Source: Lytechinus pictus
Lineage: Eukaryota
DNA: 64,000 bases
Direction of reading: 5' to 3'
Assembly: GCF_037042905.1 (NCBI RefSeq)
Contig: NC_087250.1
Span: 5,582,001-5,646,000 of the forward strand
The notes below the pieces were generated by a model. The model worked only from the letters and a program-made list of their open reading frames with translations, was not told the DNA's origin and did no database searches. Shown here piece by piece: positions 14,301 to 57,916 of this stretch; the stretch's first letter is position 1, and every line of letters begins with the position of its first letter. Position numbers and translations under genes: made by a program.

Positions 14301-14560
14301 ATCGTAATTGGCATTATTACTTTCCGATTAGATCTCGTTATCAACCATGTGTCTTGCAATTATGTGCGAAATTTGCAATTCATTGCTTATCTGCTTCTTG
14401 ACACACGGAGTGTAATCTAATTGGCTGCAGTTGAAATCTATCAATTGTAAAATTATATCAGAATATTTGCAATTGGTTGCAAATATTTTATTGCAACACC
14501 CCCCCCCCCCCCCCATATGCATACATGTACAAAATAAAAGAGCGCATGTTACAGTGTTTA
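8311..14560 (+). repeat. Tandem array of 4 near-identical 1561-1564 bp units
   Basis: Units start at 8311, 9872, 11433 and 12997. Differences I noticed: poly-C length (13,13,16,16), one G/A near 8656 and one T/G near 13882. Confidence 0.97.
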
Positions 14561-28403: not shown

Positions 28404-28832
28404 TTACTCTGAAACCGTCAACAGGACCTCATCAAAAGTCTTGGTAAGATCCTGAGCAGAAGGGCGTTTCTTTGGCTCTCGGGTGAAGCAGCTCATGAGG
28501 GCGTCCTTTATTATCTGGTTGTCGAGTGTGGAGATGGTGTCGGGTACGAAATCGTCTCCACACAGTCTAGTGTTGACTTCCCTCTCCGAAAGCTCTTCAC
28601 CTTTATCGTCCTCCCACACGTGATGCCCTGTGAACAGCTCCAGGAACAAGCAGGCCAGAGACCAGATATCTCCTTCGGGTGTGGCTTTGTAACCCCTCTC
28701 ACAAGACTCCGGAGGACACCACTTCTTAGTCCCTCCTCGCTCCCCGGAAGTGATCTCTGTTACCGCTGAATGGGTGAGTCCGTGGGCCAATCCTAAATCA
28801 CAAACGAACGGTTCGTTGTCTGTCTTCCTAAT
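28404..28832 (-). CDS. Terminal kinase exon (subdomains VII-XI) with TAA stop
   Basis: ccccatacag|ATTAGG...; VCDLGLA, GGTKKWCPPE, GDIWSLACLFLELFTG, CFTREPKKRPSA; stop at 28404-28406. Confidence 0.95.
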   Translation of the reverse strand: MRKTDNEPFVCDLGLAHGLTHSAVTEITSGERGGTKKWCPPESCERGYKATPEGDIWSLACLFLELFTGHHVWEDDKGEELSEREVNTRLCGDDFVPDTISTLDNQIIKDALMSCFTREPKKRPSAQDLTKTFDEVLLTVSE

Positions 28833-31800
28833 CTGTATGGGGGGGGGGGGGGTAGAAAACACAAGTACAAAACCTTTTGTCCGAAAGCTCCCCAGGGAAT
28901 GGAGAAATTACACGATTTGCTTGCTTGCAAGCCATCTTTGGAGATCGGGGTATACATCTGCAAATTAGATACAAGAGTGCTTACTGCTTAGACGTGTTGT
29001 TACGGTTTATTGAGCACTATAAAAGCGGAATATCATTTTCATTATAAAACAGATTGTTTTAGTAGTGGAAATGACTACAAAGTATATTCGAAATAAAACG
29101 ATGACATTTGGAATGTAGATTTTGTCGCAAGTCTTTGTTAATTTTCCTTCGATCCCTTTTGCCGAATGACAAATAAACATTTAAAGAAAGATGAGGACCC
29201 CCCCCCCCCCCCCCTCATTCACCAACACCTTTGAAATGTGTATATCCTCAATAAGAGATACGTGCAATTAGCAAGTTTAGGTTCTTAAATAATAATTGAA
29301 ACGTTTTGTCGTGTGATAGAAGAAACAAAATGCGATTTTGAAGAAGTTAAAACTAGATGCTTGATAATTATTTTATATAAATGAACTACGTCCTACCAAT
29401 ATATTGTCGGATTTGATGTCCGAATGAGTGCATTTCTTGGAGTGGATGTGTGCGATTGCATCAGACACCTTACGGGCAACGGTAAGTTTCCCACGAAGAG
29501 ATTCCTGCAAATAAAAATTAAGTAAAGGGCCTCTGACAGTCTCGCCTGCCTTACGCTTTGAAAACAGTTATTGAATAACTATTCACAAAAGACACATTCA
29601 TATGATAATAAAATACTATGCATGTCCATGGATCCAAAATGACCTTTGACCATGATCATGCGACCTAAGACGTGTGCTAAGCAACCATTCATACTTGATT
29701 ACCTTTATGTCTACATTTCATGAACTAGATCCATGAGTTATGCTAATTAAAAAAAAAACACACACAGCCAATGTTCATTGGTCTTAAATAACCTATGATC
29801 TTGGTCATATGACCCGAAACGCTCACATGATCTTTAGAGATACATAATTGCTCTTGTGTTCAAGTTTCATGAACTAGATCTATTAAGTTATGACAATCCC
29901 GCAAATGCCCCCAAACAGTACCAAAGTTCGTTGACCAAAAATGACCTTCAGCCTTTTTCATGTGACCTGAAACTCGCATGTACAGGATGTTTAGGAATAC
30001 TTCCTTAATTTTATATCCAAGTTTCATGAACTAGATCTATACAGTTTCAAAGTTATGATGACATTTCCATAATACTCCCAATATGAAAATAGTTATTTGA
30101 CCATAAGTGACCCTTGCAACTGGTCAGGTGACCTGAATCTCAGGCAGGATCTTCAGTGATACACTGTACACTAATGTTTAAGTTTCATTAACTATATAGG
30201 TCCATATACTTTTGAAGTTATGAAGACATTAAAAAAACTCAACCGTGGTTATGATCTCGATATTGATTCCTTAACATGGTCTAAGTTCATTGACCCTAAA
30301 TGACCTTTGTCATGTGATCCGAAACTCACGGATGTTGAGTAATACTTGATTATCCTTATGTCTAAGTTTCATGAACTAGGTTCATTTACTTTTTGAGTTA
30401 TGATGACATTTCAAAAACTTATGCTCGGTTAAGATCTAAGTGTTCATTGACCCTAAATGACCTTTGACCTTTGTCATCTGACCCGAAACTCATACAGGAT
30501 GTTAAGTAATACTTGATTACCCCTATGTCCAAGTTTCATTAACTAGGTTCATTTACTTTTGAAGTTATGATGACATTTCAAAAACTTAACCTCGATTAAA
30601 ATTTAAGTGTTGCCTTCGCCGCCGCCGCGCCGTCGTCGAAAAATCGGCGCCTATAGTCTCGCTCTTCTATGCAGGCGATGCTACAATTTCATTTTTTACG
30701 CTTAAACTCATTGGCTCGTGTTCTGATAGCCTGGTTTACCTTAACCCTAGTCTAAGTTTGGTAATAAACCGCCATATTTAAACATAGCTTTAAGTTTTGT
30801 ATTCTGATAGCAAGGTTTAAGTTAACCCTGGTCTACATGTAAGTGTGGTAATAAATCCTCACAAAGGTAGACTCGCGCAGGGGGTAGCTTAACCCATGGC
30901 AAACAAATTTTTAGAATTTATACCTATCTTGCATTTCCAGCTATTTCCTCAGATTTTAACCGATTATCTTGAAATTTTGAAAACATATTGGTCTAAAGGT
31001 TATGAGGTGTAAGAAACATTTTCTTTTCTTTTTTTACTTTTTCGGAAATTGTGTTGCGATGGTAACGGTATATATTATGGCCAAAATTTTGCCGTTTAAA
31101 ATACTTCATCAGTTTCCTACCAATTCCCAAGAAAGTTGGCTCACACATTGATTTTGAGGTGAAGATGTGCAAAAGACATTTTTGCATTGTCGAAAATTGT
31201 GTTGCCATGACAACGGTATATTATGGCAAAAATTATGTAAAAGTGTTGCAGTACCAACTACTTCTTTAGTTTTTAACCACTTCTCATGAAATTTGGCACA
31301 GAGAACAGATTTCGTGCTTATATCAGAAATCGGGACACCGTGGTTACAACATATAACGAGAATTGACTCTGTATGTTTAATTAACTTTGTAGATTAGGTG
31401 CATGCCCACCTTAGTGAAATAGTTCCGTTTAAACGCAACTTAAGAACAAGCCCAATTGTGCGAGTCTTTTATTTAATTGGTGGGAAAACATGTTGGATAT
31501 GCTTTTTAAGAGTTGTATTTGATTAAAACTCTTCAAGCAATGGGCCCCTGTTCGAATTGGCTGGCTTACCAGATACTCCAAATTTTCTTCGAATAGAGCA
31601 TCCTTTAGAGTGGAGCCTTCGATGAGCTGGAGGATAAGATCGAAGCATGAATATTTGGTTCGTATTCCTTGTTTATACTTCGAGTATGCATACAGCATTA
31701 CAATGTTGGGATGTTTGACCAATCTGGAAAAGAAGATATGAAAACGTGAATTACATGGAATATCCTTTGCGCGTATAAGACTAAGCATAGATCTTAACAA

Positions 31801-34800
31801 ATATATTTCACACTATATATGCGTCTAGATCCCAGAAAGTAACCTTTGACCAGATGACTCAAAAAACCTCATCACGCCATTATCATTCCAATATGGAAGA
31901 GCCATTAATTTTCATAAAGCTTATTCCTCAAAACTGCAAAAATTGTTGATTTTCGCGAGAATACCCCCTTGACATTGACTTGACCATTGTACTCGCTACC
32001 AAACCGGCTTTAGAAATTCCAATTAAAGTAGAATGCTGATATAGGCATCAATAAAAGTGTTGCATTATTTGATGTAAGGCTCAAGTCACAACTCAGAGCG
32101 GCGATCGATCGATTAGTAGCCTGGTCGGGCGCCGCTGGAATTTAGGCATCGCCGAACTATTTTTGTAGAAGTCGAGCGGGCTGCAAAAATAATTAGCGGT
32201 GGCCGAGCAGTGCCCGGTCGATTACCCATTACTCAAGGCCGAATCTAGGTCAAATTGGGGAACTTATCTGTTTGGCGTCTGAGCAGTGATCGACTGACAA
32301 CCCACCGAATCCCGGGCGGTCCCCCACCGGCCACCGGCCTATTTTTAGGTAATTGCCCGCCGGTCCGATCTTGAATTCGCCGCGAGATCATCGACCGATC
32401 TCTGACCGGCCAGGTCGGCCGATGACCGCTCGACAGCTGTCGATCCAACGAGTTTCGTTCGACGGCGACCGCTCGATTACGTCGGCTGCCGGAAGCGAAA
32501 GTATTTTTCCCATCGCAGTTCTGATCTGGAACATAATAGGAATATTCATGACTTGCGTCTTCGGAATAAAAGTACGCATGCGCGTGGATTAATTGTCGGT
32601 GCCTCGATCAGTGGTCGTTAGCGTTCACGTTTTCACGAATGAACATGATGAATCAGCACCCTCAAATTACCGATGCCCATACATAGTTATATAGGCCTTA
32701 TAGGCTTAGATCTATATCTAGATCCAGTTCTTAAACAATTATCAAACTAGCTGTCATTAATCATGTTAATGACAAGACAAAATGATAGGTTAGGGCTAGC
32801 TTAGGCTAGCCCATTAACTTTACCTCAAATCTGGACCTGTCTAATGCCTATTACTAGTAGCCAACCAATGCCATGGTTAACTTCGAACTGATTAATTCCG
32901 AACTTTACGTTTAATTAGGTTAGACCAATTAGCTTAGTAGCCATGGTTTAATAAGTCTAGTCTTTATATACAGAACCAGTCCTAGATCTAAATAAATTTA
33001 TCTTAGATCTAGTCTAGTCTCTAGATCTTGATAAACTCTGATCTAAGCTGTATCAGCATGGAACGTATTCTGACGTCAGGCACAAATTAACGTCAATGAG
33101 CAGGACATAGCCTACATTAACGGTTTAACGCACGCGGCTCTGCAATCGCAGAGTAAACTCTCTTGATCCCCGTCTTGATCAACAATAGATCGATCTGCAT
33201 TTTCTTTTCCAGTTATTAAGCTCTAATTGATTTCCCGTGCTCCAAATCGGGAATTGTGTTACTAGTTCTATACCCGGACGAGACCTATTTAACCAAGGCG
33301 ACCATAGCCTCTTGTCGAGGCCCTGTCGGCTGCTTTCCGAGCGAACATGGCAAAGCAAGGGAGAGAGCGAAGCAGAGCGCCGCGAGACAGGGCCTCTTGA
33401 CATCTGTGCCGAATTCCATCGACTTTCTTTTGTTTTTTGTTGTTTTTACCAATTCACCGACCAAAAACTGGTCGGTGAAAATCATCCAATGAGAGCGCGA
33501 GCTGCTATGACGTCATATTAAATATTCATGAGCTCATCTTGAATGGCTACCCTTGGATTCTTGGCGAAGAGTGACGACGAAATATCAAAGAGCACTGTAT
33601 ATGCCTCTAAAATGCTGAATATTGACCGATATAAGGATTTGCAATTCGATGAAATTAACTCTGCACTGAAAGGACGAGATATCTTTGTAAATCTACCCAC
33701 AGGATATGGAAAAAATGTAATATTTAATGCGATTCCACCGGTCGATCCGGGGCGTCGATTATCGATTAAGTGCAGTGCAGTGAGGGAAGCTGGGGTGGAG
33801 TTGCTGGGAGTTGACTCGAGTCTGACCAGCGGCTGAGAAGTATCTCCCGGGAAGTTTCGGGGCGGTGATGGGTCTGTTACGGCCAGTAGTAATAGTAGTA
33901 GTAGTAGTAGTAGTAATAGTACCACTACTTTTAGCATTTTGCTGGTTATATCCCCTTTAGTGTCCCGCAATTAAATGAATCCCCTGCAGAATAGTGGACT
34001 ACTATATAGTATTCCGAACCCAAGACGAAACAGCTCTGACATTTCATTGGTTTACTCGGTGACCGGTAATATCATGACTCATGTATATTCATTAGGAAGA
34101 CGTTCCTCATGAATATATAATTCAGTTCAGATGTCAAGAGGCCCTGGCTCGCGCCAGGGCCTCTTGACATCTGAACTGAATTATATTTGATGCGTGTTTA
34201 AGCATTGGATCTAGATATAGATCTTACCCAGGTAACAATACAGCGTTGGACCAACGTTGGATCAACGTTGGGAAATTTTTTCCCAACGTTGCCTCAACGT
34301 TGGCAGGCCAACGTTGCATCATCGATAGAAGTGCACGCGCATACATCGTCAGACCAACAACATTTCCAACGTCAGTTCAACGTTGTCCAGCAACAATGTT
34401 TCAACGTTGTCTGGCAACGTTGATCCAATGTTGGCTAAATAGTCAAATACAACATTGCTACAACGTTGGTAAGCAACGTTGCATCATCGATAGAAGTGCA
34501 CGTCCATACATCGTCAGACCAACAACATTTCTAACGTCAGTTCAACGTTGTCCACCATCAATGCTCCAACGTTGGTATAATGTCGGCTGAGTCATCAATA
34601 ACAGCATTGCTGCAACGTTGATGGGCAACGTTGAAGCAGCGATGGACGTGAACTTGCATACATCGTCAGTCCAACTATGTTTACAACGCTGGTTCAACGC
34701 TGTCCAGCAACAATGCTCCAACGTTGTCTGGCAACATTGCTCCAACATTGTTACAACGTTGTCACAACGTTGCTCCAACATTGCTCCAACGTTATTCCAA

Positions 34801-37800
34801 CGTATGGCAGTAATTAACAAAACATTAATTGGTTTCAAGGTGAAGTCCACCATTACAACTCTTCACTCTAATCTTTATCATCATGTCTTATCCTATCCTA
34901 AAATCCTACATCCTAATCCTATATCCTATTCCTATCATCCTACACCTATCCACTGTATCCTGTCATTGACTCCTATATATAGAGCAACTTTGCTATACTT
35001 GGCAGAATACAGTTAATATCATTTTCCACACTTAACCTTGAATATTTCACTTAGAATAATATGTTTTGATTATAAATGATATGGTAATGGAGCCACATAC
35101 TTTTCTGAAACTTTTCATGGTGGAAATATTGAATAAACATAAATACTCTAATTATTATAGCAATATTACCTAAAATTTTTGTCATTTACTGATGTAATGA
35201 ATATTCATGAGTGCATAATCATTGTCCAGATGAGGCAGGTTTGGCAGCGTTGGTCCAATGTTGGTCCAACGTTGGGTGACGTTGATCCAACGTTGGTATA
35301 ATGTTGGTCCAATGTTGATGGAAAGTTGATTCAACTTTAGTCCAATGTTAGCGTAAACGTTGATTCAATGTTTGTCTAATATCGGTTAAATGTTGTTGTA
35401 ACGTTGATTCTTTGTTGGTCTAATTTTAAACAAATCCAACGATGCACCATCTCCATCAAACAGTTTTCAACACTGTGCCATCATCATCTGTAACCTGTTC
35501 ATGATTCTATCAAAAAACATTACAACTATTATTACAGCTATTTATTTCTTTTCATTCTTTCTGTTACAAGTCTCTTCACATAATTAAGAGGAGTCAAGAG
35601 AATTACGTGTGATATTTATTTATCACAAAAACTCACATGTGTAATTGCAGTCTCTCAGTATTTACAAAATCTAAAAGGGAGGTCGCGTAACTTGGCCTCA
35701 CTCAGAGTAACGTAACTACTGCCTACTGTAACTAAAGAGTGCCTCTTTTTTATTAAGATAGAAGTCAACTGATATCTCAATATGCATGGCCATGGCCCAG
35801 TCTCGCTCGTGCCATAACTATTAAATGATATTTCAGCGTCAAGTGTAGCATGCCTCACATAGCAACTACAGGTTTGACTGCAGTTGGAAAACACTCGGTC
35901 CAGGCTAGGCCAGGCAGGACCGACCAGGTCAATTCAAGGCAGCGTATAATAAATAAGGCAGGAATGCCAGGTAGCAAGTCATTGGGTGATTTAAAGTACG
36001 GTGTACGGTGTTGAGAGCGTGAAATGGCTGCTGAACTGAGCTCCAACACCAAGCGTAATATTATTTTTCATTGAAATGTATTAAAACTCTAATTATTTGC
36101 TCTCATCTTAAATGTAAAAGATAATTTTACGGAGATGGTTCGTCGTGTTCGCCCCCTGTTCGTGAGCTACAGTTCATCAACACCAACACTGAACTTTAAA
36201 TCACGATTTTCCCAATCCCTGGGGGCCGGTGTTGCTGAATGGGGAAATTGCTTGTAGATCATCAACACCATGCAGCCATAGTGCAGTGTTGGGTTCAGCA
36301 GATGACAATCAACACCAGCCTTCAACACAAACTGCCGGAAATACACCATATTTTCCAAGGTCAATCTCAACACCAGCCTGATTCAAGTACGGTGTTGTCA
36401 CAACTCCAACACCAGATTTCAACACTGTACTTGAAATTATTGAAATCACCCAATGACTGTTGCCTTGCCCTTGGTATCGCATACTCGTTCCCACTCACAC
36501 GTATTGCGAGGTTAGTATTATATTAGTCACTCACACAAGCTAATTACGAGGTTAGTTAGTATGTTATACTGTGCAGTGACTGGTGTTAAGTACTACTTTA
36601 CTACTACTTTACTACTACTTACACGAATATAGTAGCGTCGGACTGTACGCGCACAGAAGCTGACTCCGGGATCTTTCGGAGGGGATCAATGGCTGCAGTT
36701 ACCGATTATCTGCAAGTGCAAAGAAAATTCCACTGTAGATTGTAGGTCCTAAATATGCAGCTTATAAGTACTGTTCCAGATCACTAGATATTCTGGAATT
36801 CAATTGTCTATATCCACTATCCAGTCCAAATTCTACCAGATTCTTCAAGTTCAAAATTGAAGGAAGCAGACTACACAGACATGACAGAAGGAGTCCGACG
36901 TCGAGACTAATTCTGCGCATCAGAATAGTATGGTATTTTTAAATAGGCACATTTGATGCTTGTATTTCCTTCTTCAATTTCTTCTAGTTATGTGACGGTA
37001 GGCCTATGAATTATCTCGTACTTACTGTGAAAGGCCGAGCCAGCTGCAAAGGACGAGGGCGTTTCTGGAAATTCTGGTCTTGAACTACATTTTTTTTCTT
37101 GTTTTTCTCCTTTATTTTCTATATTAATCGACACATTTGCATCCCCCGGTGCATGCGCAGCCTCTCTATTCTACCCCATCTTTATTTTTGTTTTCCCCTT
37201 AGACTTAGTTTTAGTTCCTCTTTCCCTTCCCATTATTTTCCTTCTCTCTCGATTTCTTTTCCCCTTATTGCTGGGGGATACCAAGGGTGACATGGATAGA
37301 CAAGCAAACTTACTTGATCGACCCCCCCCCTTGGCCCCATTAATAATTATGCGAGTAGTCGTCTGTATATCATTATCAATTCTCCAATGAACCAGTTTCT
37401 AACGTTCTCAACACTGTATATATTATGCCGGGATATTATGTTGACTGTCAAACAAATATCCAACAAACTATAGTTTCCAACATTGTGTCAATGTTAACTG
37501 TCAACAACTCTCCAATAAACTATTCCAATTACGCTGTCCACGTTGTGCCATTGTCCGTTGTTCAACAACTCTCCGTCAAACTAGTTTCCACTCCTTTGTC
37601 AACGTTGTGCCATTGTCGACTGTCCAACAAATCTCCAAGAAAATAGTTTCCAACGTTGTTCCTTTGTCGGTTGTTCAGCAACTCTCCATCGAACTAGTTT
37701 CCGACGTAGTCAACGCTGTGCCTTTGTTGGCTGTTCAACACCTATCCAATCAAACACGCGTTTCCAACGTTGTGACGTTGTTGGCTGTCCAGCAAATCTC

Positions 37801-40800
37801 CAACACACTAGTTTCCAATGTTGTGCCATTGTCTGTTGTTCAACAACCTTCCAACGTTGCCAACGTTGTGTCATCGTCGACTATCCTACTGATCTCCAAT
37901 CTACCAGTTTCCAACGTTGTGCCAGTGTCAGTTGTTCAACAACCTCCCATCTAACTAGTTTCCAGCTTTATCAACGTTGTGTCATTGTATACTATCTAAC
38001 TAATCTCCAATCTACCAGTTTCCAACGTTGTGCCATCGTCGACTATCCAACAAATCTCCATCGAACTAGTTTCTAGCTTTGACAACGTTGTGCCATAGTT
38101 GGTTGTTCAACAACTTTCCATCGAACTAGTTTCCAACGTTGCCAACCTTGTGTCATCGTCGACTATCCAACTAATCTCCAACCTACTAGTTTCCATCGTT
38201 GTGCAATTGTCGACTGTCCAACAACTCTCCAACTAACAAGTTTCCAACGTTGCCAACGTCGTGTCATTGTTGATTGTTCAACAACTTTCCAGCGAACTAG
38301 TTTCCAACGTTGTGCCTTTGCTGGCTGTCAACAACTATCCAATCAAACGTGTCTCCAACGTTGTGACATTGTCGACTGTCCAACAACTCTCCAACTTACT
38401 AGTCTCCAACGTTGTGCCATTGTCGACCGTCCAACAAATCTCCAACAAACTAGTTTCCAACTTTGTCAACGTTGTGCCATTGTCGGTTGTTCAACAACTT
38501 TCCAGCGAACTAGTTTCCAACGTTGCCAACGTTGTGCCTTTGCTGGCTGTTCAACAACTATCCAATCAAACGTGTTTCCAACGTTGTGACATTGTCGACT
38601 GTCCAACAACTCTCCAACTAACAAGTTTCCAACGTTGCCAACGTCGTGTCATTGTTGATTGTCCATCATCTTTCCATCAAACTAGTTTCCAACGTCGATT
38701 CAACGTTAATCCATCAAGTTTTTCCAACGTCCAACGACTTTCAAGTTTCCAACGTGGAGCCAACGTTGGCTTGTTACCTGGGTAGCATATAAAGCCTATG
38801 TAAATAATGCAAGTGTACCGGTAATTTGAGGGTGTGATTCATCTATGGCAATGTGAACGATAACGTACGACCACGGTCACCGAGTGAATTAAATTTGTAA
38901 AGATCCACGCGCATGCGTACATGTATTCCGAAGACGCAAGTCATGAATATTCATATTTTGTTCCAGAACTGCGGTGGAAAAAATAACTTTGCTACCCGGA
39001 CGGCCGCCGGTCGGTTCTCGGCCGAAAGTGGATTTGTAACCTTAGACTTATCTCCGTATTTGTTACTTATTTGCTTGTGGATAATGGCTGAGAGGCTGTT
39101 TAAATAAGACAAACTTACGCATTTATCTTGATCTCCCTTACCAGAACGTCTGCCATCTTATCTTCAACACAATTTACCCGCTTTATGGCCACCTTCCTGC
39201 CATTCCAATTTCCCTCGTACACATCCCCGTATCCTCCACGAGAAATCTGGTCTAAGGTCGTAACTTCGGATTTATCGATTTGTTTGATTTCTGAAAAAGA
39301 GAATGATTTATGAATTTACAAAACATTGTTAAAAAATTTCCCATATACGATCGAGGGAACATACAACATATGGGTTGTTGCGTCTCGCCCAATGTGGAAA
39401 ATATAAATTTCATGCGATGTTTCTCAATTTCCTTTCTTCTCCTTCCACCGTTCTCCAACCCGGGAAAGAAAAAAAAAATCATTTTTTACGTGTGTCAAGG
39501 ACACATGTAAAAAGTAGGCCTTCTCAAAACCAAAATCACTTGCACTATGAGCAGGCCTTTATGGTTGGTACTGGCGGACAGATAGGGGGGGGGGCTTGGG
39601 GTCATTCCTCCTCCCCCCCCCCCCCGAAAAAAGGGGGAAATGTAAGGAAATTGGGTGAATTGTATTATTTTGTAAAAACTGAAGAAAAAAAAGACTTTTG
39701 TTTTAAAAAGGTCCAACTTTTTCCTCGCGCACTCGCAGCTTTGAAAAATTTGGCTCCATACGACATGTCTGGGCCCCTATTTCTTTTTTTGTGCTTATTT
39801 CGCCACTTGTAGTTAGACATCATGTTTCGTTGTCACAATTCACGTAGTAAATACAATGCCTACACCCACACCAAGTACGTACCAAATGTGACTGCCATGA
39901 ACAAAAAATGGGCTTTTGGGGCCCGGGTGCGCTTCACATATCCGTGTTAAATGTCCCTATCGCGAACGGGTAAGACGTCTAAATGGAAGAGGAAGCCCAG
40001 ATAGTACAAGAGCATTAGGCCAAAATAGGCTTAAGAAAGGAAATTTCAGGTAACAAGCTGATTTTTTCAGTATAGGTCCAGGAATATGTCTAGAATAACA
40101 TACTAAAAGTCCTCATATATCCTCATTGAGGGTTTTCCGTAATCCGAAATGGCGTCCAAAATGGCCGCCATTACAGAAAATGGCCATAACGCTCTCATTA
40201 TCCAACCTAGACTCCAAATTTTGGTGCATATTTCATGGCTTAAAGGTTTAAAAAGAGCTATTGATACAGGTTAGAGTGAACATAAGCAGACCAGTATACC
40301 TAAAAATCCAAGATGGCGTCTAAAATGGCCGCCAAAGCTTAAAAATCCACAATCTATCTATGGCTTATGTTAGTATCTTTAATTTTGTTTCTATTCAATG
40401 GTTTTAAGGGTCAAGTAGTACATTTGGACAAGTTTCAAGGACAGTCAGTGGTCAAGTATGTCCAAAAATCCAAGATTGCTTCCAAAAATGGGGTTTAAAA
40501 AGGCCTCTATTACTTACGAATGGACATAGTACATTTAATATCTGCCTGGATATATGATTGTGGTGCACGTCTAAACCATGGTTTGAAGGGTAAAAATAAT
40601 ACATTAGGACAGGTTAAAAAGACACTCAGTGGTCCAGTATGTCCAAAAATCCAAGACGACTTCCAAAAATGGAGTCTAAATTGACTGCTGTTTCTGAAAA
40701 ATTGGCATAAAATCAAAGACGGCTTGTAAAATGGAGCCAAAATTGACATAGTTCATCTAATATCTACCTGAGAGATAATATTTTGGTGTCTAAACCATTG

Positions 40801-45923: not shown

Positions 45924-46001
<78 letters not shown>

Positions 46002-49000
46002 TTTCAGTATTTTAAACATCGTTTTTGACACCCTTATAACGTTACATAGGCCTGTACTTGCCCACTCTGTCCCCTTTTACGCGTGATCGCGCCTGGTATC
46101 CACTCATCAATGGAAGTGGGCACCCCGGGCGGCCTCTCGAGCTCTAGGAGGAACCAAATCTGGCTTTGAAAAGTCGTCCTAAATCGGATATATCGCTGTT
46201 ACCATGCATAGAAGCAACCATAATTTTGCACACGAAACGCAAATTGAATGTTTCTGTTCCAGATGCGAAACGTAAAAAAAATCTCATGTCACACAATTTG
46301 CATTGCAGGACAGAGTTTTACGACCATGACGACGGGTTCTTCTAACGAAAGGTCGGGATTGTCAGTGCAGCTGCTCTACATGAATTGGCTTTGATATCAT
46401 GAACAAAATAGACCCAAAAAAGGAAGAAAGAAGGGCGTACTCACACAGATGGGCGTACTCGACAGTCGATCCTGCCCCCGCCTCTCTTTTAGTTTCAATA
46501 ATACTCTAGAGAAACTATCAGCATTCGGCATTTGCACACCCTTGACCCGAGAATTGCGTCCGAGGCCGAGGATTAACCTCCATCCTCGGGGACAATGCCG
46601 ATTATGCGGCCTCAAGGCCGAAGCCGGCCTCGAGACTCACAACACTGGTGTAGGCGGTAGAAAGCGTCCCCGGTAAGGGACTTTATGTCAGAAAATGAGC
46701 TACTTAGTGGTTAAAATTCAAACAAATAGACTGCACACGCACACACTATAGTCCCCACTTTGTCGATTAATGATAAACGAGTCCCGACTGTGCGTGTGTG
46801 GGGGGAGGGCATGGGCGGAAATCCCAGGGGGGACAGGGGGACGCGTCCCTCCCTACCCAAAATAGTAGGGGGACATAATATCAAATGTCCGCCCTACTAT
46901 TTTTTGTATTTTATGATGGAGCAAAATACATCACTTTACAATCGAAATAATACATGTATTTTGGACTAAATGACCTTACATTTTCGGGGAGAACTTTTTT
47001 TTTTTGCTTGTCAAATTGTTTTGATAAAAATTACCTTACATTTTGGGTGAAAACCTTTTTTTTATTTTTGCTTGTCAAATTTTCCAGGCCCGGTCCCCCT
47101 ACCTTTGGGGACAGATTTCCGACCATGGGAGAGGGTGTACACATACGTTTATGTAAATGGGTATGTGTATGAATACAACAAATAAATTACCTCTTCTTTG
47201 TATAGGCCTACGACCAACTCCATCTCCAGATTCTAAACAGAAGGAAGAGGACAACAAAGTTTAACACATTATCTACATGATCTACATTATGTATAATTTT
47301 GAATGTAAAAAACAAAACGCTTAAATCGTCATCAAAATTACACAACTCCAAAAAGAAATAGATTTTTATTGAAACAAATAGGTCCATGATTTAAACCGGG
47401 GGTTGAAATAACTATTACGACAAAATGCAAAACAAATAGGGAATGTGTGACATCGCTCGCTCTCATCTTTATGTTACCATGCAGCGTGATGACTATCTGT
47501 GCGAAACAATTAACATGTCGTTTTCATCAGGGGTCCGTTGCAGAAAGAGTTGTCTTTAAACGCAAGTCAAAAAATCAACTGCAAGTCCAAAATGCACGCT
47601 GTTGATTGGTTGAAAATCAAGTTGTGCATGATTTTTAGAGTTGCGATTGATTGCAACTATTTCTGCAACGGGCCCCAGTCTGAATTCGATGACGATGAAA
47701 TTTCCATCGGCTTCTTTGAACATCGCTATTAATTCAAATCTACTCTTCACTGGGATGTGTTGAACTTTAAGCTATGCTGTATACAAAATTAGTTGTAGTT
47801 TGTGCGTACGTGTATGTGTGTGAGTGTGAAATATGCAACAAATAAATTAGTTAGTCTTTGTTTCCGTCTAAGCATGTTTTCAGTTTCTAAGCAATTCATT
47901 TGATCACGCCGCTCCCACCCCCCCCCCTGAAAAAATATCAAATTGAATATAAATAAGTTTAAAAGATTAGAAGATAAACATTACTATTATGATAAATGAA
48001 TAGATAGATAAATAAACAATGAGTTATTCATTATGAGAAAAATATATAAATGAATTAAATAACAAAATATCTACATAATCTACTTTTGTGTATAATTTAC
48101 TTATGCGCAATTACCAAATGCGACCAGACAATATTGGGTTATAATATACAATGCACACTTTATTTTACAAACATCAAAGATGCTTACGAAAATAATTATC
48201 TGACTATTTTCACATACCATACATAAATTAGGATTAACCGGAGTGCAGAATGCTTGAGTATTACGATGTTAATATGTCTACTGACCTTTTGCAATGGTAG
48301 AAGTTTCTTGGACACTGAAAGACAGAGTCGTCTTAGATTCAGTTGCATCTTCAGGCGGTGAAATGTCGGGAAAAGAATATGTTGTGTCTTCTTTGATAAC
48401 TGGTCGCGTAACTGGTTCTGGTGACTTGAACTTTGCTGCTAAAGCACAGGGTTTTCCTGCATTGGATGAAATGCACATAGAAACACACGAACAAAACTGA
48501 TAACAGATTCATTAGGTACGTCCTCCCCCCCCCCCCTCCTTCTTTTGTTTTCTTTTGAGGACTCAACTGATGCAAACTTTCGACCCGCAATGCCGTGCCT
48601 ATTCGGATTTCCTTGAGGGTGTACCTCAAGGCGCCGTCAGCGCACCCTTCCTCTTCCTGGTATAGGCCACACTTTCAAAGAAATGCACATTCCAAATAAA
48701 TGTAGCATAATTCCAAGTAATTCACACGTCCAATCTATAATAATATCTATGGTAATGAAAATGATATTTCGCTGAGATATCATGACTTGTTTGTCCCCCA
48801 TTTCAACATTATTTTGATATGCCGAATCTGTTAAGCATAAACAGACTTTCAAGTGATAAGGACATGCGTCTACACGACGCCTGGCTAGCTCATAGTTGAC
48901 AAAAGATGTGGGAGGTATTTAATTATTACAGAATAATCCTTAGGTGGGTTCCCTGTTATTCTTTTTACCTGAAAAAATACAAATGGAGCATAAAATGACC

Positions 49001-52000
49001 CCCTCCCCTACCCCCGAACTCCCATTGCTTGACCAGAGGGTGTTTCACAAAATTTATGTACGACTCGCACTTAATATGCCTAGTTGCGAGCGCTATAAAA
49101 GGCATGACGGTATTGGTCAGATCATGCCAAGACGACGCTTACTGTACAAGAGTAAGCGTTGCATGTAATATACGCACCGGCATTCAAGTCATAGGCCTAC
49201 TTATATATTTGTGAAACACCCCTGATCCCAGGCCCAAGGGCTCGTTGCAAAATGAGTTGCGCTTAAATGCAACAAAAATATAAATCACAAGTAATGAATC
49301 ACATGTCCTGCATGCGCAATCAGAATCAAATAAATGGTGGTTTTTTGTGCACTGGATACACTATAAATCTCATATTCGAAATTACCGTTCACATTGAAGT
49401 AATTACCATATAGCACATGACATATATTTATTGATACACATTTAAAAAAACTCACTGTCTCTTGCCGTCATTTTCCCCTTGACTTTGATGCTCAATTTCC
49501 TAATGCTGGTTTGCGTCAGAGGTGGTTGGAAAGAACCTCCAGCAGGAGATGAATCTTCAATCTGTATTGAAACAGGGGCGGTTTCTTCATATTTGTAGTC
49601 GACGTTGTTCTTTTTGGGAAGACTGTCTTGTATCCTTCGTGGGACGTCCAAAACTTCTATCTTGAATTCGTCAGTTGGCGGTGCACGAGGATCTACAGCG
49701 TGTTCTAAGAAGTAGGCAAGAGATCTGGTCAAGATGTCCGATGGGGACAGGATCAGAAGCCTTTTCACCAATGGATGCAGGACATCATTAAGACGACCAT
49801 TACTTCTTGATTCGTAGTTCAATGCAAGAATGAACTCGACCATATACTGGTATAGCCCACGATCGGCATGCCAAATGATTCTTTCCCCTTCCTTTGCGTT
49901 TAGGCCAACATCTTCTGCGAAGGCCAAGGTAAGATCAACCATATGGCTTACGATAGTGCTTGCCGCATCGACAGATTCTCCACAAGAAAACTGCATCAAA
50001 TTTCTGAGAGAAAGTGCCTCCTCCATGGAACTTATCTTCTGGAGACTTGTGTGAAATGATTGTTTCTCTTCGGCGTTTCCATGGAGGAGTTTGGAGAAGT
50101 GTTTAGCAGCAAGCCTCTGCTGAAATGGCCCATTAAGGAAGCTATAGATCTTTCCTTCACATGCTACATGAGTAGAAGGAATAAACTCCTCCTGTACAGA
50201 TTTCACCAAGAGTCCTTTACGAATTCCACTTGTAAGTACTTCTGTTTTTAAGTCACCGCAAACATCAAAGTCGCTTTCACACAAGTGAAATTCTTCTTGC
50301 TGACCGTCCTTCAAATAGCAATTGAATGCTACGACTGACAAATGCGCCATCGTTTGGTCTTTTGAGAGTGTAGGCCTCGTCCCAGTCTGGAAACTCATGT
50401 TGCTTCTCAGCGAGCTTGGACTTGAGACTGAATGTTCGATTGGTTCGGTATTCAGAGATGGATCTGCATGCCTCATGATGCAATCGATGGACTTGTCTAT
50501 TAATGCTGAACTAGTTTTTAGCTCACCAAGTGATGCAGGGTTATCATTCCATTTCAGGATCTGGCACATTATGCAAAGGAGCACTGGTGACGCCACCATA
50601 TCACGCAGCAATTCTGTGTTCATAATATATTCCTTTACCTTTAACCCAAAGTCTTTTCTTTTGTCGAACACCTTCCCAATGTAGGTACCAACTGAGGTTT
50701 TACTTATTCCCTCCACTTTCACATGGTCATAATTTCCATACACTTCACGGAAATCCCCGATCCCACCGGATTTCGTGGCAACCAAAATGGTTAGATGTGG
50801 AAATTCTCGAAGGAGAACCATATCTTCGAGGGAGCTAGTATTTTGCTGACACGCCGGCTGACCATTTATTTTCCATTTCGTGTAGTGGTCAAGGATAACC
50901 AATATCTCATCAGGGCATTCTTTGCACATGTTCTCGATATCCTTTGGAGTGAAACGGGTGTAAGCCGGCAAACATTGGTCATTGATTGCTTGGCCGAGAC
51001 TAGTTCCAATTTCAACTTTCACTCCGTCAATGTAAAAAACAAGGCTGAAATTCTTCAGTGGACCTTCCTTTTGACACCATTGGGATAGCCACATCTTGAT
51101 TTCGGTTGTTTTACCGACGCCAGATGGACCAAAGAAGAGAATTCTTTTTTTGTTAAAGTGGGGACTCTTAAAGAGGTCTATGGCCTCTATCTCCGGCATC
51201 CGCGGAAGATCTGGGGAGATTTCACTCTTCTTTAGTATCACCGGGACATGAAGATTTTCTACACTATAAATTTTGGTTTCAGTAGAAGGAGGGAGTGTTA
51301 TTTTTAATGCATTGCTGCATTTCGTGTATTGTTGTTGTAACTGTTCCCGACACATTTCGATTGGTCTAATGCAGATATAAGAGAAGGAAGAGAGAGAGAG
51401 AAAAAAATGCAATTGTCATTTCTTCGAAACCACAACATAATAGACAGGCTCCGCAGTAGCGGAGGCGAAGGGGAAGACCCCCACCCACCGGCCGTCCGAC
51501 AGAATTTTGATGATATTTTTATTATTTTTATCATTTTCTAGTGGATGGGCGGGGCTTGTCAGAAATTGTTTAGGTTGATTGGTTTCATTAATGGTTAATT
51601 AATCTCAGCCTTTTCTCAGACTAGAACATGATAAGGATCACGAACGCTAATCACAGTCACGATTACAGAGCAATCATCATTACAATGATGATTCAAGATT
51701 CACGTGTGATAAGGCCCTAAGGCCCTTTTTACACGTGAATTCTAAGGGCCTTTTCACACGTGAATCTTGAATCATCATTGTAAAGATAATTGCTATTGTA
51801 ATCGTGACGGTGATTAGCGTTCGTGATTCTAATCATGTTCTAGTTTAGTTTCACACATGCTAAATATTCGTCATTAGCCTTATTTTTTTTACTGGAATCA
51901 TCATTCAAATTACAATTTTTACCGTGTGAAAGGAATCAAAGGATGGCACACTTTGCCGTAACAAAATCACATCGGCTAAACGTGTTGTTTACCTTATTTC

Positions 52001-55000: not shown

Positions 55001-57916
55001 AAACATACAAGATACAATATATCGAGATCAATCAAAATGATTCCATAGGAAAGGAGTAATGAATATTGTAAAATGACAAATTAACAAAAATAACAAAATA
55101 TGTGTGGGTGCGGGTGATTCGCCTCTACGCCCAACGTCATTTTGTCCTATGAACTGAGCAAATTTGGTGATCCTGAGCAAGATTAATGTGTAACTAAATA
55201 AGTAGTGCGAACGCGAAGCGAGAGCAGAAAATTAGGTTTTAGCCTGCTTGAAAGGGGACCTGATAAAGACTGTTTGCAGTTACATAGTTCAACAATCTAA
55301 TTATGATTTTTTTTTTACCTTCTGATCTAAGTACCTTTTTGTGATCATGAACAGGATAGGTATTAGGATTGGTGCGACCGCGAAGTGCGAGCGGAAAAAT
55401 TGAGATTTAGACCTAAAAACGGGGCACTCTATTCATGCTTTGTAAATAATGAAAACTGGGCAATTGGGTATCCTCCTACACTGTAAAAAAGAATTAGTAG
55501 AAATTACTTAATAAAATTGTGGCAAAAAATTGCCTTAATTTTTTCAAGTATTTATGACTTTGGCAGTTTTAAGTAAAATTTACTTATTTTCTTTGCTTCC
55601 ATTTTACTAAAGAAAATTAAGTTACAACAACTTAATTCAATTAAGTAAAACAATCAACAAAATATTTGAAAATATCAAATGGGGGAGTGGACTTTCGTGA
55701 TTCGAAAGTCCGCTCCCCTATTGTCCCACGTTTGGTGGCATCATTTTCATTTTAGACATGTTTTATCCAAATATTAGACTTTGTGAATTGTCACTTTACC
55801 TGTACATGTATAGGTACTGACATTTATATTTATACGCGATCGTTTCATTCTTACAAATAAAACAGTGAGAATAATTTTCTGCTAAATGACTATTTAATAT
55901 TGCCTTTTCATTGATTCAACAAAAGAATACAATAGTTAGCACACCCTTATCCAAAACAATTTCAAACACAAATAGATATGACATTTATTTAAAAAAAAAA
56001 AACATTAACTTGCTCTAATGAATATTCATGCATTATTTAAATATGGCGTTAATTGAAAAATATAAGTACATTCAACATGATTTTATAAGTAACAATCATC
56101 TTTGCCTAATTGAGTTAGATTTACTCAATCAAAGCAAGCTATCAATACGTGAATTTTCTTAAATGTATATTGAACCCAAATAAATCAAGTAAATTAAAAG
56201 ACAAGTTGAAACTACTTAAAAACAACGAAAAATAATTACAAATTGTAAATTCTACTTAAATACATTAAGTGTTAACTACTGATTCAAAGATTTTTTTTTA
56301 CAGTGTACATACATAATGCTAATGTGAGCTGAACATTTTTGACATTCTGATCTGAAACTAGATAATTCAAGTACGTTTTGAAGAAAGAACAAGCTGCGTA
56401 TCTCAATAAACACGCATGTGCGTGTTTTAGATTCATACCTAGAATTTGAGCATTCTAAATAACATTTTTTTATCATGATATTCAATAATGCAAGCGCGGA
56501 GCGCGAGCTGAAACTTTTTGATATTCCGATCTGAAAAAGGGGTTAATTTAAGCACTCTTTCAAGCACTGTGTCGGAAAATTGTGAAGTGGATGTGGATTG
56601 CACTTAAATAAATCATGTAAGCGAAGCGCGTGCTGATGTTTTTTCTTTTAGTTTTACCTAGGACCGGGACATTCTAAGGACATTCGTTATCATATGAAAT
56701 CGATGAATTTCTACCTATTTCTCTTTCTAAGCGCAAGATGTGATTATGAATAGGATGCATGGGCAAATGTGTTTTCAAAAATTGAAGCGAGCGCAAATAA
56801 CGAGCAGAAATGTTTCTTTGATATCTGTCATGAAAAGGGAATTTTTAGATTCAACTGCGCATACAGTCTGTGAAATATAAAGTTCCAATCACGAATTGCT
56901 TCAGGCCCTTCTCAAGGTAACGGTCCTTGGACCAAAGTAGACTAGTATGAAGAGAATATTATACAGATGACAATTACAGTCACCTGTTCGTGAATTCATT
57001 ATCTATGCGATGAATGGCAATTCATTCATAGGTCAATGGGTGAACTATCGGCACATTTTGGTAACAAAATTGCCAAAATGTGCCGTAACAGCCCGGGGGG
57101 GGGGGGGGGGGCACTTCCATTGACGAGTGGATACCATGCGCGACCATGGGGTCTCAAAAAGCACCCTAAACACGTATTTTCCATATTCTGAAAATGCACC
57201 CCTTAACAAGTATTGACGTGTGAAACCCTACCCTTAACAAGTATTGGAAACAAAACGATACTCTTCGCAAGTAGTCCCTGAAATAAACCCCGAAACAAGT
57301 ACAGCGATATTTATTGTTATGTCACGGGTCCGCCGGTCGGCCCCACACCTTGCGCAAATCGGACTCTAAACACGTAATGTTCGGGGCAAAAAGGACATCC
57401 TTTTAATTTTGTTTTATCATCCCCGCAAATTTGACCCTAAACACGTAGCTTTCCTAGCGAAATAGATACTCTTTTTCATTATTTTTGTGGTTTTGACACT
57501 CTTTTCACGTTACGTACGTAACGTGCCCTATCTTGAAAAAGACATCCTTTTTACGTGTTTTTTGGTCGCGCATGGTATCCACCTAAGTGCCCCCCCCCCC
57601 CCCCCCCCCGGGCGTAACAGTCGCCTATGTGAACACACCGTGATCAGACACTGTTCTTCCCAGCATGGTATTACCGTTTTAAGAAATCAAGCATCAAAAA
57701 TCATAAATCTCGTATTTTGCATCGGATTTTGCTTACGTTTTCAGCGTAAGGCTTGCATGATTTGTTATTGTTGTTGTTCAAATGAACTTCTTGTTAGGAT
57801 TGAATTACCATTTGCTAAGATTAAAATGGTCCTTAAAGAGACTTACTCCATTGATCTTTGCCTGGTGCCATGAACATTTTTTCCAGTCGAAGGAGGAAGA
57901 GATAGACGTGGTCGAC
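28404..57916 (-). CDS. Multi-exon gene encoding an NLR-like NACHT NTPase fused to a C-terminal TKL-like Ser/Thr kinase (~996 aa from ATG 57849-57851; true 5' end uncertain)
   Basis: Eight exons with AG/GT boundaries and intron phases 2,1,1,1,2,0,0 join into one ORF (5+1910+171+42+172+154+108+429 = 2991 nt including TAA). NACHT and kinase motifs occur in the correct order. Confidence 0.85.
29397..29504 (-). CDS. Kinase exon (subdomains VIa-VIb, catalytic loop), absent from the ORF track
   Basis: tttgcag|GAATCT...ATATTG|gtagga; ESLRGKLTVARKVSDAIAHIHSKKCTHSDIKSDNIL. Confidence 0.93.
29525..30685 (+). mobile_element. Non-autonomous element with internal ~140-bp tandem repeats (Helentron-associated HINE/Tsp-like)
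   Basis: Subterminal inverted repeat tctcgcctgc / gcaggcga, repeats of tgacctttgacc...catgaactag, (GCC)n near the 3' end; second copy at 58082-59276. Confidence 0.7.
31570..31723 (-). CDS. Kinase exon (subdomains IV-V)
   Basis: ttttccag|A TTG GTC AAA CAT CCC...TAT CTG|gtaagc; LVKHPNIVMLYAYS...LILQLIEGSTLKDALFEENLEYL. Confidence 0.92.
33543..33745 (+). pseudogene. RecQ-like SF2 helicase N-terminal fragment inside a small TIR element
   Basis: YKDLQFDEINSALKGRDIFVNLPTGYGKNVIFNAIP resembles RecQ motifs 0/I (GRDxFVxxPTGxGKS); similarity stops after motif I. Confidence 0.75.
34227..38782. mobile_element. Non-autonomous EnSpm/CACTA-like element (CCC termini, TA TSD) with CAACGTTG subterminal arrays
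   Basis: ta|cccaggtaaca ... tgttacctggg|ta; dozens of caacgttg motifs at 34240-34810, 35240-35420 and 37390-38770; no transposase ORF. Confidence 0.85.
39119..39290 (-). CDS. Kinase N-lobe exon (subdomains I-III), absent from the ORF track
   Basis: tctttttcag|AAATC...AAATGC|gtaagt; translates EIKQIDKSEVTTLDQISRGGYGDVYEGNWNGRKVAIKRVNCVEDKMADVLVREIKINA (G-loop, VAIK, alphaC Glu). Confidence 0.93.
42757..43420 (+). repeat. Three near-identical 221-bp tandem units inside the foldback arm
   Basis: taactatgtccctttgtaaggaatagcagcc at 42757, ~42977 and 43198. Confidence 0.9.
44024..44959. mobile_element. Non-autonomous Kolobok-like element (TTAA TSD, GG...CC termini) nested in the foldback element
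   Basis: ttaa|ggacgttccacagtta ... taactgtggaacgtcc|ttaa; host sequence resumes on both sides. Confidence 0.88.
45203..46357. repeat. Direct plus inverted copies of the 18450-19290 segment, with a (TA)n expansion at ~45928-45996
   Basis: 45203-45610 matches 18450-19120 forward with deletions; 45618-46357 matches pieces of 18450-19290 in reverse complement. Confidence 0.85.
47191..47232 (-). CDS. Linker micro-exon (42 nt, phase 1-1)
   Basis: cctcttccttctgtttag|AATCTGGAG...AGAAGAG|gtaatt; reads ESGDGVGRRPIQRR. Symmetric, so the frame does not require it. Confidence 0.65.
47530..47676. mobile_element. Short MITE
   Basis: ggggtccgttgcagaaagagttg ... caactatttctgcaacgggcccc. Confidence 0.75.
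48286..48456 (-). CDS. Linker exon (171 nt, S/T/P/E-rich, phase 1-1)
   Basis: tgcag|GAAAACCC...GCAAAAG|gtcagt; translates KPCALAAKFKSPEPVTRPVIKEDTTYSFPDISPPEDATESKTTLSFSVQETSTIAK in frame with the NACHT exon. Confidence 0.8.
49036..49224. mobile_element. Short MITE
   Basis: ggggtgtttcacaaa ... tttgtgaaacacccc. Confidence 0.7.
49456..51365 (-). CDS. Large NACHT exon (pre-NACHT helix, NACHT, HD1, winged helix, HD2)
   Basis: Within 656-aa ORF 49442..51412. Walker A FFGPSGVGKTT; Walker B-position ILVILDHYTK; sensor-1-position ILVATK; HD1 ASPVLLCIMC; WHD YSFLNGPFQQRLAAKHF; HD2 LMQFSCG. Acceptor pyrimidine tract...cattag|, donor |gtgagt. Confidence 0.95.
51620..51933. mobile_element. Harbinger-like MITE with an adjacent inverted partial copy forming a ~225-bp palindrome
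   Basis: 51620-51718 is the diverged reverse complement of 51746-51845; termini ggccttttcacac ... gtgtgaaagg next to TAA. Confidence 0.65.
55479..56305. mobile_element. Non-autonomous CACTA/EnSpm-like element (CACTG termini, TA TSD)
   Basis: ta|cactgtaaaaaa ... tttttttacagtg|ta; interrupts the 55200-56830 repeat. Confidence 0.8.
57092..57612. mobile_element. Non-autonomous DNA element with CCCGGG-poly(G) TIRs and 8-bp TSD
   Basis: CGTAACAG at 57084-57091 and 57613-57620; TIR cccggg(g)n-cactt...gtggataccatgcgcgacca. Confidence 0.9.
57847..57916 (-). CDS. Putative upstream exon; contains candidate start ATG (57849-57851)
   Basis: attaaag|GTCGAC...TCAATGGA|gtaagt. GA plus the first A of the NACHT exon gives GAA (M-E-P-I-E-M-C-R), matching the required phase 2. 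All three frames are open, so support is moderate. Confidence 0.6.

Follow-up and report, generated by a model that had tools for sequence, protein, structure and literature searches.

A predicted sea urchin protein joining an NLR-type NACHT module to a C-terminal MAP3K-like kinase

The stretch of DNA analyzed here, called the window, comprises 64,000 nucleotides (nt) of contig NC_087250.1 from the sea urchin Lytechinus pictus (positions 5,582,001 to 5,646,000) and includes most of the minus-strand gene LOC135154507. The protein of this gene has its parts in a single frame and in the following order: a fast-evolving N-terminal helical region, a STAND module with NACHT, winged-helix, and helical domains, a disordered linker, and a complete non-RD Ser/Thr kinase. 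It is likely that the product is a single fused NACHT-kinase protein, because four annotated models carry the fusion, the linker has diverged while remaining in frame, exon 5 has no start codon before the glycine loop, and a micro-exon is part of the model. LOC135154507 is already annotated as uncharacterized, and its architecture is an independently evolved, lineage-restricted STAND-kinase fusion.

The search of the NACHT frame against 5.8 billion proteins gave 4 matches. The top one was LOC135154507, with 100% identity and with NACHT and Pkinase as precomputed Pfam domains. The RefSeq protein XP_063956828.1 (P0001) has 1097 amino acids (aa) and is titled "uncharacterized protein LOC135154507 [Lytechinus pictus]". 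We generated with a script all combinations of GT/GC-AG bounded exons near the approximate matches and compared their translations with this protein. A single combination, made up of 8 exons, reproduced residues 81–1097 letter for letter. The introns in the window were gt..ag in 7/7 cases, with lengths from 564 to 7900 nt. Since introns 2, 3, and 4 share phase 1, the path from the NACHT exon to the kinase runs through two symmetric in-frame cassettes, exon 3 with 57 codons and exon 4 with 14. A first-pass annotation of this DNA had proposed the junctions 49456/48456, 48286/47232, and 47191/39290 and the ends 28404 and 57916, and all of these are identical in the unique model. It had also given the protein a length of 996 aa, which has to be corrected: the annotated protein has 1097 aa, and its first 80 residues are coded outside the window, since 13/13 test 8-mers from residues 1–80 were missing from the six-frame translation.

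The base composition of the window is AT-rich. A 657-codon minus-strand frame (49442–51415) encodes the NACHT and an NLRC4-type helical domain, a 167-codon minus-strand frame (28404–28907) encodes the C-lobe of a protein kinase, and other kinase subdomains are found in three further minus-strand frames. The features of the gene, with the evidence for each in parentheses, are the following.

57847..57916, minus strand: coding exon 1 of the window, residues 81–103, end of the N-terminal region (exact mapping; ag acceptor and gt donor)
49456..51365, minus strand: exon 2, 1910 nt, residues 103–740, with the pre-NACHT part, the NACHT nucleoside triphosphatase (NTPase), the helical/winged-helix modules, and a C-terminal tail (exact mapping, Pfam, hhalign)
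50663..51142, minus strand: NACHT nucleotide-binding domain, residues 178–337 (Pfam NACHT, 1.5e-10)
51104–51130, minus strand: Walker A, GPSGVGKTT (motif columns compared with 16 relatives)
49931..50050, minus strand: NLRC4 helical domain match, residues 542–581, directly after the winged-helix motif (Pfam NLRC4_HD, 1.2e-5)
48286..48456, minus strand: linker exon 3, 57 codons, phase 1-1, weakly conserved (exact mapping; contig X2 record 25)
47191..47232, minus strand: micro-exon 4, 42 nt, 14 codons, phase 1-1 (exact mapping; 47-letter stretch of contig X2 record 25)
39119..39290, minus strand: kinase exon 5, with the glycine loop GGYGDV, the VAIK lysine, and the alpha-C glutamate, subdomains I–III (exact mapping; contig X2 record 25)
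31570..31723, minus strand: kinase exon 6, subdomains IV–V, HPNIV (exact mapping)
29397..29504, minus strand: kinase exon 7, catalytic loop HSDIKSDN, non-RD (exact mapping, motifs)
28404..28832, minus strand: kinase exon 8, with DLG, the activation segment, PPE, DIWSLAC, KRPSA, and the stop at 28404–28406 (Pfam Pkinase, 1.7e-14 for the exon alone)
49427..49444, minus strand: early end if the exon-2 donor is unused, TAA at 49442–49444 after 4 codons and AATAAA at 49427–49432 (sequence; X16 contigs span intron 2)
48476..48478, minus strand: intron-2 ATG that shares the frame of exon 3 and has stop codons ahead of it (sequence; X2 record 25 reaches past the ATG to 48509)

Micro-exon 4 is missing from the L. 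variegatus model. No other coding gene separates the NACHT exon from those of the kinase, as judged from a Pfam scan of 146 of the window's 210 open reading frames (ORFs) of at least 62 aa, in which only two reverse-transcriptase fragments (24747–25282) and one low-complexity match in a tandem repeat scored. The 64 ORFs outside the scan belonged to the 1.56-kb tandem array, lay across exons of this gene, or, in some cases, were otherwise overlapping frames.

In XP_063956828.1, Pfam detected Pkinase at residues 822–1086 (2.3e-39, profile positions 3–259 of 263), NACHT at residues 178–337 (1.5e-10, above the cut-off), and NLRC4_HD at residues 542–581 (1.2e-5). This agrees with the proposal that a NACHT and helical/winged-helix module is joined through a linker to a complete kinase in one ORF. 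The same is true of the absence of leucine-rich repeats (LRRs) after the helical domains: no LRR family matched the whole 1097 aa at E ≤ 1, and the only L..L.L pattern among the 1097 residues is located in the kinase. Nor did tblastn with 15 NLR relatives reveal LRR relics in the introns, the best E in the window outside the NACHT exon being 0.02. Residues 1–177 had no Pfam match, ESM Atlas gave no usable match with residues 1–105, and Pfam detected neither a CARD nor a Death nor a RHIM family in the protein. With hhalign, the alignment to Death-NACHT relatives had a probability of 100% over columns 49–659 and started inside the Death domain of the relatives. The N-terminus alone was not significant against the Death-domain profile (E 0.24), and its helix topology aligns with the Death domain of these relatives. 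Among solved structures, NLRC4 (PDB 8fw2) matched at E 1.1e-6, and chains of NLRC4 and NAIP5 cover residues 366–480 of the exon.

The relatives of the NACHT exon were searched with HMMER among 1.84 billion cluster representatives; 400 proteins were found at E ≤ 0.001, and 12 of them at E ≤ 1e-30. The fusion is modeled in L. pictus, L. variegatus, and Strongylocentrotus purpuratus. Among the 150 relatives listed out of these 400, phmmer with the urchin kinase detected a kinase in the L. variegatus orthologue only, and the 149 others had none (0/149). Pfam analysis of 33 relatives revealed NACHT in 33/33, Death in 4, DED in 1, TIR in 1, LRR families in 9, and kinase in 0. Where the nearest relatives carry names, they are NLR-type proteins from echinoderms, namely L. 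pictus, S. purpuratus, Asterias, and Amphiura. The NACHT tree, made by a quick method, placed the kinase-bearing proteins in one clade with a support of 100 in the Shimodaira–Hasegawa-like approximate likelihood ratio test (SH-aLRT). Sister to this clade were P0004, P0023 (two unnamed ENA single-ORF proteins), and the next branch out was the S. purpuratus NACHT-LRR protein "NLRC4" (SH-aLRT 90), all of them inside echinoderm Death-NACHT groups.

The echinoderm Death-NACHT and NACHT-LRR proteins, such as S. purpuratus "NLRC4" (XP_011677849), L. pictus LOC129282110, and the Asterias "NLRP3-like" protein, have NACHT and helical modules homologous to those of the fusion (phmmer 1e-54 to 1e-56, hhalign 100%), and the fusion clade is nested among them. 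They carry Death, DED, or TIR domains at the N-terminus and either LRRs or no domain at the C-terminus, whereas the fusion has a kinase there. Its Walker A, GPSGVGKTT, is kept in 3/3 orthologues, and the Walker B Asp is also retained. Judged from these alignments and trees, the NACHT of the urchin fusion is a descendant of echinoderm NLRs.

In the kinase, the glycine loop, K847, E863, D948, N953, D967 (of DLG), E997, and R1078 are invariant in 4/4 full-length models, and the catalytic residues are also retained in the C-lobe fragments P0171–P0173. The catalytic loop HSDIKSDN is non-RD and has the Lys that marks the Ser/Thr type, DFG reads DLG, and APE reads PPE. With these residues, the NACHT-linked kinase looks catalytically competent. 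A profile built from 11 urchin kinase sequences was compared with solved structures; it ranked CTR1 first (9.6e-32), then B-Raf (1.2e-29) and C-Raf (about 1e-29), followed by ASK1 and TNIK (about 1e-27), and the margin of CTR1 and B-Raf over ASK1 and TNIK is small. The names given automatically by NCBI to the fragment kinase copies are of the MAP3K type. Among solved structures, the kinase thus appears closest to the Raf/CTR1-type MAP3Ks of the TKL group, from which it differs by having HSD and DLG instead of HRD and DFG; in addition, Pfam found no Ras-binding or other Raf regulatory domain in the urchin protein.

Other assignments of the kinase were discarded. A wider profile of 16 sequences, some of them non-urchin, ranked PAK1 first and was set aside as pulled by the added sequences. 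The HSD and DLG of the urchin kinase presumably resemble the motifs of RIPK1. A RIPK-like kinase was rejected because no RIPK chain was among the best 60 solved chains, either with the single sequence or with the urchin profile, and the parallel with NOD-RIPK2 implied by the first-pass annotation is weakened by a kinase that ranks with Raf/CTR1/ASK1-type MAP3Ks. Membership in the ROCO (LRRK-type) family was rejected as well, with no Roc or COR family at E ≤ 1 in Pfam.

The closest non-orthologous kinases are those of the sea urchin "MIB2-like" proteins P0005–P0007, which have 32–34% identity and branch as sister to the NACHT-linked kinases in the tree of C-lobes. They share with the fusion the non-RD catalytic loop, DLG, PPE, and KRPSA, and DVWSLAC belongs to the shared motif set, but their scaffold is different (MIB_HERC2, ZZ, SH3_15, and ankyrin). 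These proteins, from S. purpuratus and L. pictus, carry the annotation "E3 ubiquitin-protein ligase MIB2(-like)" and have a full kinase at their C-terminus, which makes them a second unusual kinase fusion in urchins; no RING-type family was found among their Pfam matches.

The NACHT-kinase family is small and so far known only from camarodont sea urchins; outside Lytechinus and Strongylocentrotus, the distribution was judged on annotated proteomes and single-ORF gene calls. Besides the window protein, there are models in L. variegatus (P0002; XP_041467436.1, 1087 aa) and S. purpuratus (P0186; XP_030849513.1, 1113 aa; an older model of the same gene, XP_011679536.1, is garbled at the C-lobe), and a second L. 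pictus protein, present only in nr, that is truncated at the N-terminus (P0191; XP_054757404.1, 797 aa). Pfam found Pkinase in 4/4 of these fused models, each together with NACHT or NLRC4_HD. Compared with the window protein, the second L. pictus copy has an identity of 86% over the NACHT/helical part, 82% over the kinase, and 49% over the linker (exons 3–4). The models of L. pictus and L. variegatus have 91–100% identity from the pre-NACHT part to the end of exon 2, 87–92% in the N-terminal parts, 84% in the exon 3 linker, and 67–83% in the kinase exons. Between genera, the identities are 53–75% for kinase exons 5–7 and 58–67% for the NACHT/helical part, so the conservation of the kinase is similar to that of the NACHT; the N-terminal region (27%) is among the least conserved parts, and the linker has 26%.

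Short proteins with the kinase only are present in L. variegatus (P0171), L. pictus (P0172), and S. purpuratus (P0173). Their accession numbers are 2–20 away from those of the full genes, and for this reason we place the kinase-only genes beside the full ones; no extra copies of this type were found within the window. In the C-lobe tree, all NACHT-linked kinases are in one clade (100/100) and the copies group by genus. The kinase of P0002 is 86% identical to that of the second L. pictus copy and 77% identical to that of the window. This pattern of copies points to local duplication with exchange of kinase exons, or to partly chimeric models. An earlier idea, in which a single NACHT gene would use alternative kinase cassettes at its 3′ end, was largely replaced after P0191 and the complete S. 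purpuratus model P0186 were found.

Parts of the NACHT exon are carried by 16 sequencing runs, none of which is recorded as RNA, so that their kind is guessed. Contigs of 4 runs were aligned to window positions 31500–51499, and the matches listed comprise 15 joints and 30 pieces of a larger set with 208 further joints and 7766 further pieces. The contig X2 record 25 (799 nt, organism B) covers 39119–39290, which is exactly exon 5, with 6 other letters in 172. After exon 5 it has 47 letters and then 48291–48509; the length of 47 agrees with exon 4 (42 nt) followed by 5 bases of exon 3 that were left unaligned. This contig is a spliced chain of exons 5-4-3. Three other contigs (X2 records 29 and 30 and X16 record 23) stop exactly at 51365, the exon-2 acceptor, and have 30 to 585 further letters. 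The claim that the NACHT and kinase exons belong to one transcript was thus borne out for the joining of exons 3-4-5 and the use of the exon-2 acceptor, and not for the step from exon 2 to exon 3, whose splice is absent among the matches listed and where forms with unspliced intron 2 are present. Beside near-identical contigs (X1 records 6 and 7), organism A has another version of the NACHT exon (X16 record 23) that differs in about 5% of its letters, and organism B has two versions of the 5′ end of this exon (X2 records 29 and 30, with 18 and 34 other letters in 338). These divergent versions could be a paralogue or very divergent alleles.

Fusions or partnerships of kinases with STAND proteins exist in other organisms. 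Passages of PMC3879445 describe how the kinase is recruited in trans by vertebrate NOD1/2 through CARD-CARD contacts and state that the N-terminal effector domains of sea urchin NLRs are limited to death-fold domains. By analogy, the fusion would resemble NOD1/NOD2-RIPK2 in coupling a NACHT switch to a TKL-group Ser/Thr kinase under a proximity logic, here in one chain; the differences are that the urchin kinase is not RIPK-like in the ranking of the best 60 chains and that Pfam found no CARD. In fungi and bacteria, kinase-NACHT proteins generally have the kinase at the N-terminus, in the effector position, and repeats at the C-terminus. The urchin protein has a C-terminal kinase and no repeats, while both kinds fuse a NACHT/STAND NTPase with a eukaryotic-type kinase. 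A passage of PMC4986451 names PKinase as one of the annotated domains of fungal NLRs, and passages of a preprint (bioRxiv 10.1101/2022.07.19.500537) name protein (S/T/Y) kinase as an effector of bacterial NACHT proteins. The nearest large ESM-Atlas clusters were bacterial Pkinase+NACHT proteins, with scores of 0.90–0.93. Because its NACHT descends from animal NLRs, the urchin fusion arose independently of the bacterial and fungal ones.

Plant NLRs with integrated domains (NLR-ID) provide another comparison. The Alopecurus protein P0016 (NB-ARC, LRR, and kinase) is, like the fusion, a STAND receptor with a kinase outside the effector position, and barley RPG5 is also a plant NLR with an integrated kinase. 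Unlike the urchin fusion, plant NLR-IDs have an NB-ARC instead of a NACHT and retain their LRRs. A decoy function has been shown for some plant NLR-IDs; what the urchin protein shares with this type of integrated decoy is the architecture only, that is, a noncanonical domain in the sensor position.

Our preferred explanation, which we hold tentatively and at slightly less than an even chance, is that the protein is a self-contained switch in which oligomerization of the NACHT activates the attached MAP3K-like kinase. The NACHT module would open and oligomerize, the oligomer would gather the C-terminal kinase domains, and these would be activated through dimerization and trans-phosphorylation. 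The active kinase would feed a MAPK-type defense or stress cascade, and one chain would perform what vertebrate NOD1/2 and RIPK2 do as two proteins. Activation by proximity is proposed because of the known behavior of NLRs and of Raf-type kinases, which are switched on by dimerization. The oligomerization, the proximity activation, the immune role, and the fused mRNA as main product are all steps that we infer.

Several observations weigh against this explanation. The effectors of STAND proteins are usually N-terminal, the C-terminus being the sensor position, and no sensor domain was identified in the protein. The acidic pair after the Walker B Asp is replaced by TK or PK, while it reads DE in 14/16 relatives, and the sensor-1 Arg, present in 14/16 relatives, is Lys in Lytechinus and Thr in S. 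purpuratus; most echinoderm relatives keep both features, and the fusion has lost them. The winged-helix His of NLRC4 holds ADP, and the column of this residue (His443) contains Asn or Ser in the fusion, with Asn in the window protein. According to these motifs, the NACHT switch may bind nucleotide without cycling like a classical NLR. As to the transcripts, the 49456/48456 (NACHT-to-linker) splice was not found among the matches listed. X16 record 23 passes unspliced from exon 2 across the donor as far as 49062, X16 record 22 covers 47985–49060 unspliced, and X2 record 25, which is spliced downstream, is not spliced at the exon-3 acceptor and extends 53 nt beyond it into intron 2. The unspliced NACHT frame ends with a TAA 4 codons past the donor, AATAAA follows 10 nt beyond that stop, and intron 2 has an in-frame ATG 7 codons ahead of exon 3.

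Because of the unspliced contigs, the early stop with its AATAAA, and the intron-2 ATG, a NACHT-only and a kinase-only product are possible. The locus might then yield mainly a NACHT-only protein, through read-through of the donor and polyadenylation, and a linker-kinase protein whose start lies in intron 2, and the fused model would be a minor isoform or an artefact; consistent with this, the Logan-derived ORFs P0189 and P0190 of the S. purpuratus cluster end just beyond the equivalent donor, and kinase fragments are annotated as separate genes. We think this quite improbable, given that a single ORF is retained in four RefSeq models from three species across a linker of 26–49% identity, that exon 5 lacks a start codon before the glycine loop and requires an upstream exon in phase 1, and that the phases agree at three consecutive junctions. 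Moreover, a 42-nt micro-exon is unlikely in a model without RNA support, and it fits the contig. The X16 contigs may come from a paralogue, pre-mRNA, or DNA, since they differ from the window in about 5% of the letters (X16 record 23 has 122 other letters and 20 gaps over 2304 bases, 49062–51365). If the protein is fused, the main rival reading is that its kinase would be an integrated sensor or decoy and not the output: a pathogen factor binding or modifying MAP3K-like kinases of the host would disturb it and release the NACHT, and the signal would pass through the N-terminal region, whose topology aligns with the Death-domain helices of relatives. The kinase sits C-terminally, where 9/33 scanned relatives have LRRs, its exons are multi-copy and divergent, with extra C-lobe genes beside the full genes in three species, and between L. 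pictus and L. variegatus they are less conserved (67–83%) than the part from pre-NACHT to the end of exon 2 (91–100%). Plant NLRs with integrated kinases such as P0016 set a precedent. We nevertheless regard a sensor or decoy as unlikely: the catalytic residues are all kept in every copy, and in comparisons between genera the conservation of the kinase does not fall below that of the NACHT. The divergence within the genus is largely paralogy or copy exchange, as the higher identity of the P0002 kinase to the second L. pictus copy (86% vs. 77%) and the clustering of copies by genus indicate, and the Death-domain likeness of the N-terminus alone has an E of 0.24.

A stronger form, in which the protein is the first animal NLR with an integrated kinase in the sensor position, seems rather improbable to us. 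Here the MAP3K-like domain would be bait for pathogen factors that target kinase cascades of the host; its catalytic site would stay intact, and variety would come from local duplication of kinase exons and their exchange among neighboring copies. If true, it would be the animal counterpart of plant NLR-ID, evolved independently within the echinoderm NLR radiation. It is also doubtful, and of low probability, that the protein is a nonimmune, scaffolded MAP3K whose NACHT binds and barely hydrolyzes nucleotide and forms a constitutive platform for a stress or developmental kinase. The intact P-loop with loss of the Walker-B acidic pair, the sensor-1 Arg, and the winged-helix His would fit such a scaffold, as would the MAP3K type of the kinase and the finding of one or two full genes per species, compared with the large NLR expansions of urchins. 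Against it, the nearest relatives are NLR-type proteins bearing Death, DED, TIR, or LRR domains, and local duplication and exchange of kinase exons are typical of loci with fast turnover.

Other elements of the window lie apart from the exons of the gene. Positions 8247–14600 contain a tandem array in which a 1561–1564-bp unit occurs at least 4 times with 99–100% identity, and each copy has the same short ORFs, without a Pfam match. The histone 3′ untranslated region stem-loop of Rfam matched at 3049–3095 on the plus strand (36.9 bits; gathering score 34), and no histone-like ORF was seen by eye upstream of it among 15 listed ORFs of at least 30 aa. Positions 37600–38755 (intron 5, as labeled) are a degenerate tandem repeat with periods of 51, 60, 111, 171, and 213 nt and long open frames on the plus strand; a Pfam match to GBP_PSP in this repeat was rejected as spurious, caused by low complexity. 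Downstream of the gene, at 24747–25282 on the plus strand, two adjacent frames have partial RVT_1 matches (1.9e-5 and 3.4e-9) and represent a decayed retroelement fragment.

We found no description of a NACHT-kinase fusion in animals in the literature covered, which did not include the Bradham 2006 kinome and Hibino 2006. The view of the first-pass annotation that this architecture is not a named animal family therefore stands with regard to the literature; the proteins themselves, however, were already modeled in RefSeq in three urchin species as "uncharacterized protein". When NLRs are defined by the presence of both NACHT and LRR, as in passages of PMC8662601 and PMC5094078, surveys miss NACHT-kinase proteins by design. 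A supplement of PMC8662601 does not contain the word "kinase".

Animal NLRs are thought to reach kinases only via adaptor contacts, and a natural fusion of the two would be a "Rosetta stone" protein. If the NACHT-kinase fusion is a self-contained switch, it would allow a direct test of whether NACHT oligomerization alone switches on a MAP3K. Its presence means that the large echinoderm NLR radiation did not limit itself to LRRs at the C-terminus and tried other domains there. Kinases and STAND NTPases have become fused independently in bacteria, fungi, plants, and now an animal, and this repetition suggests that the pairing is mechanistically favored.

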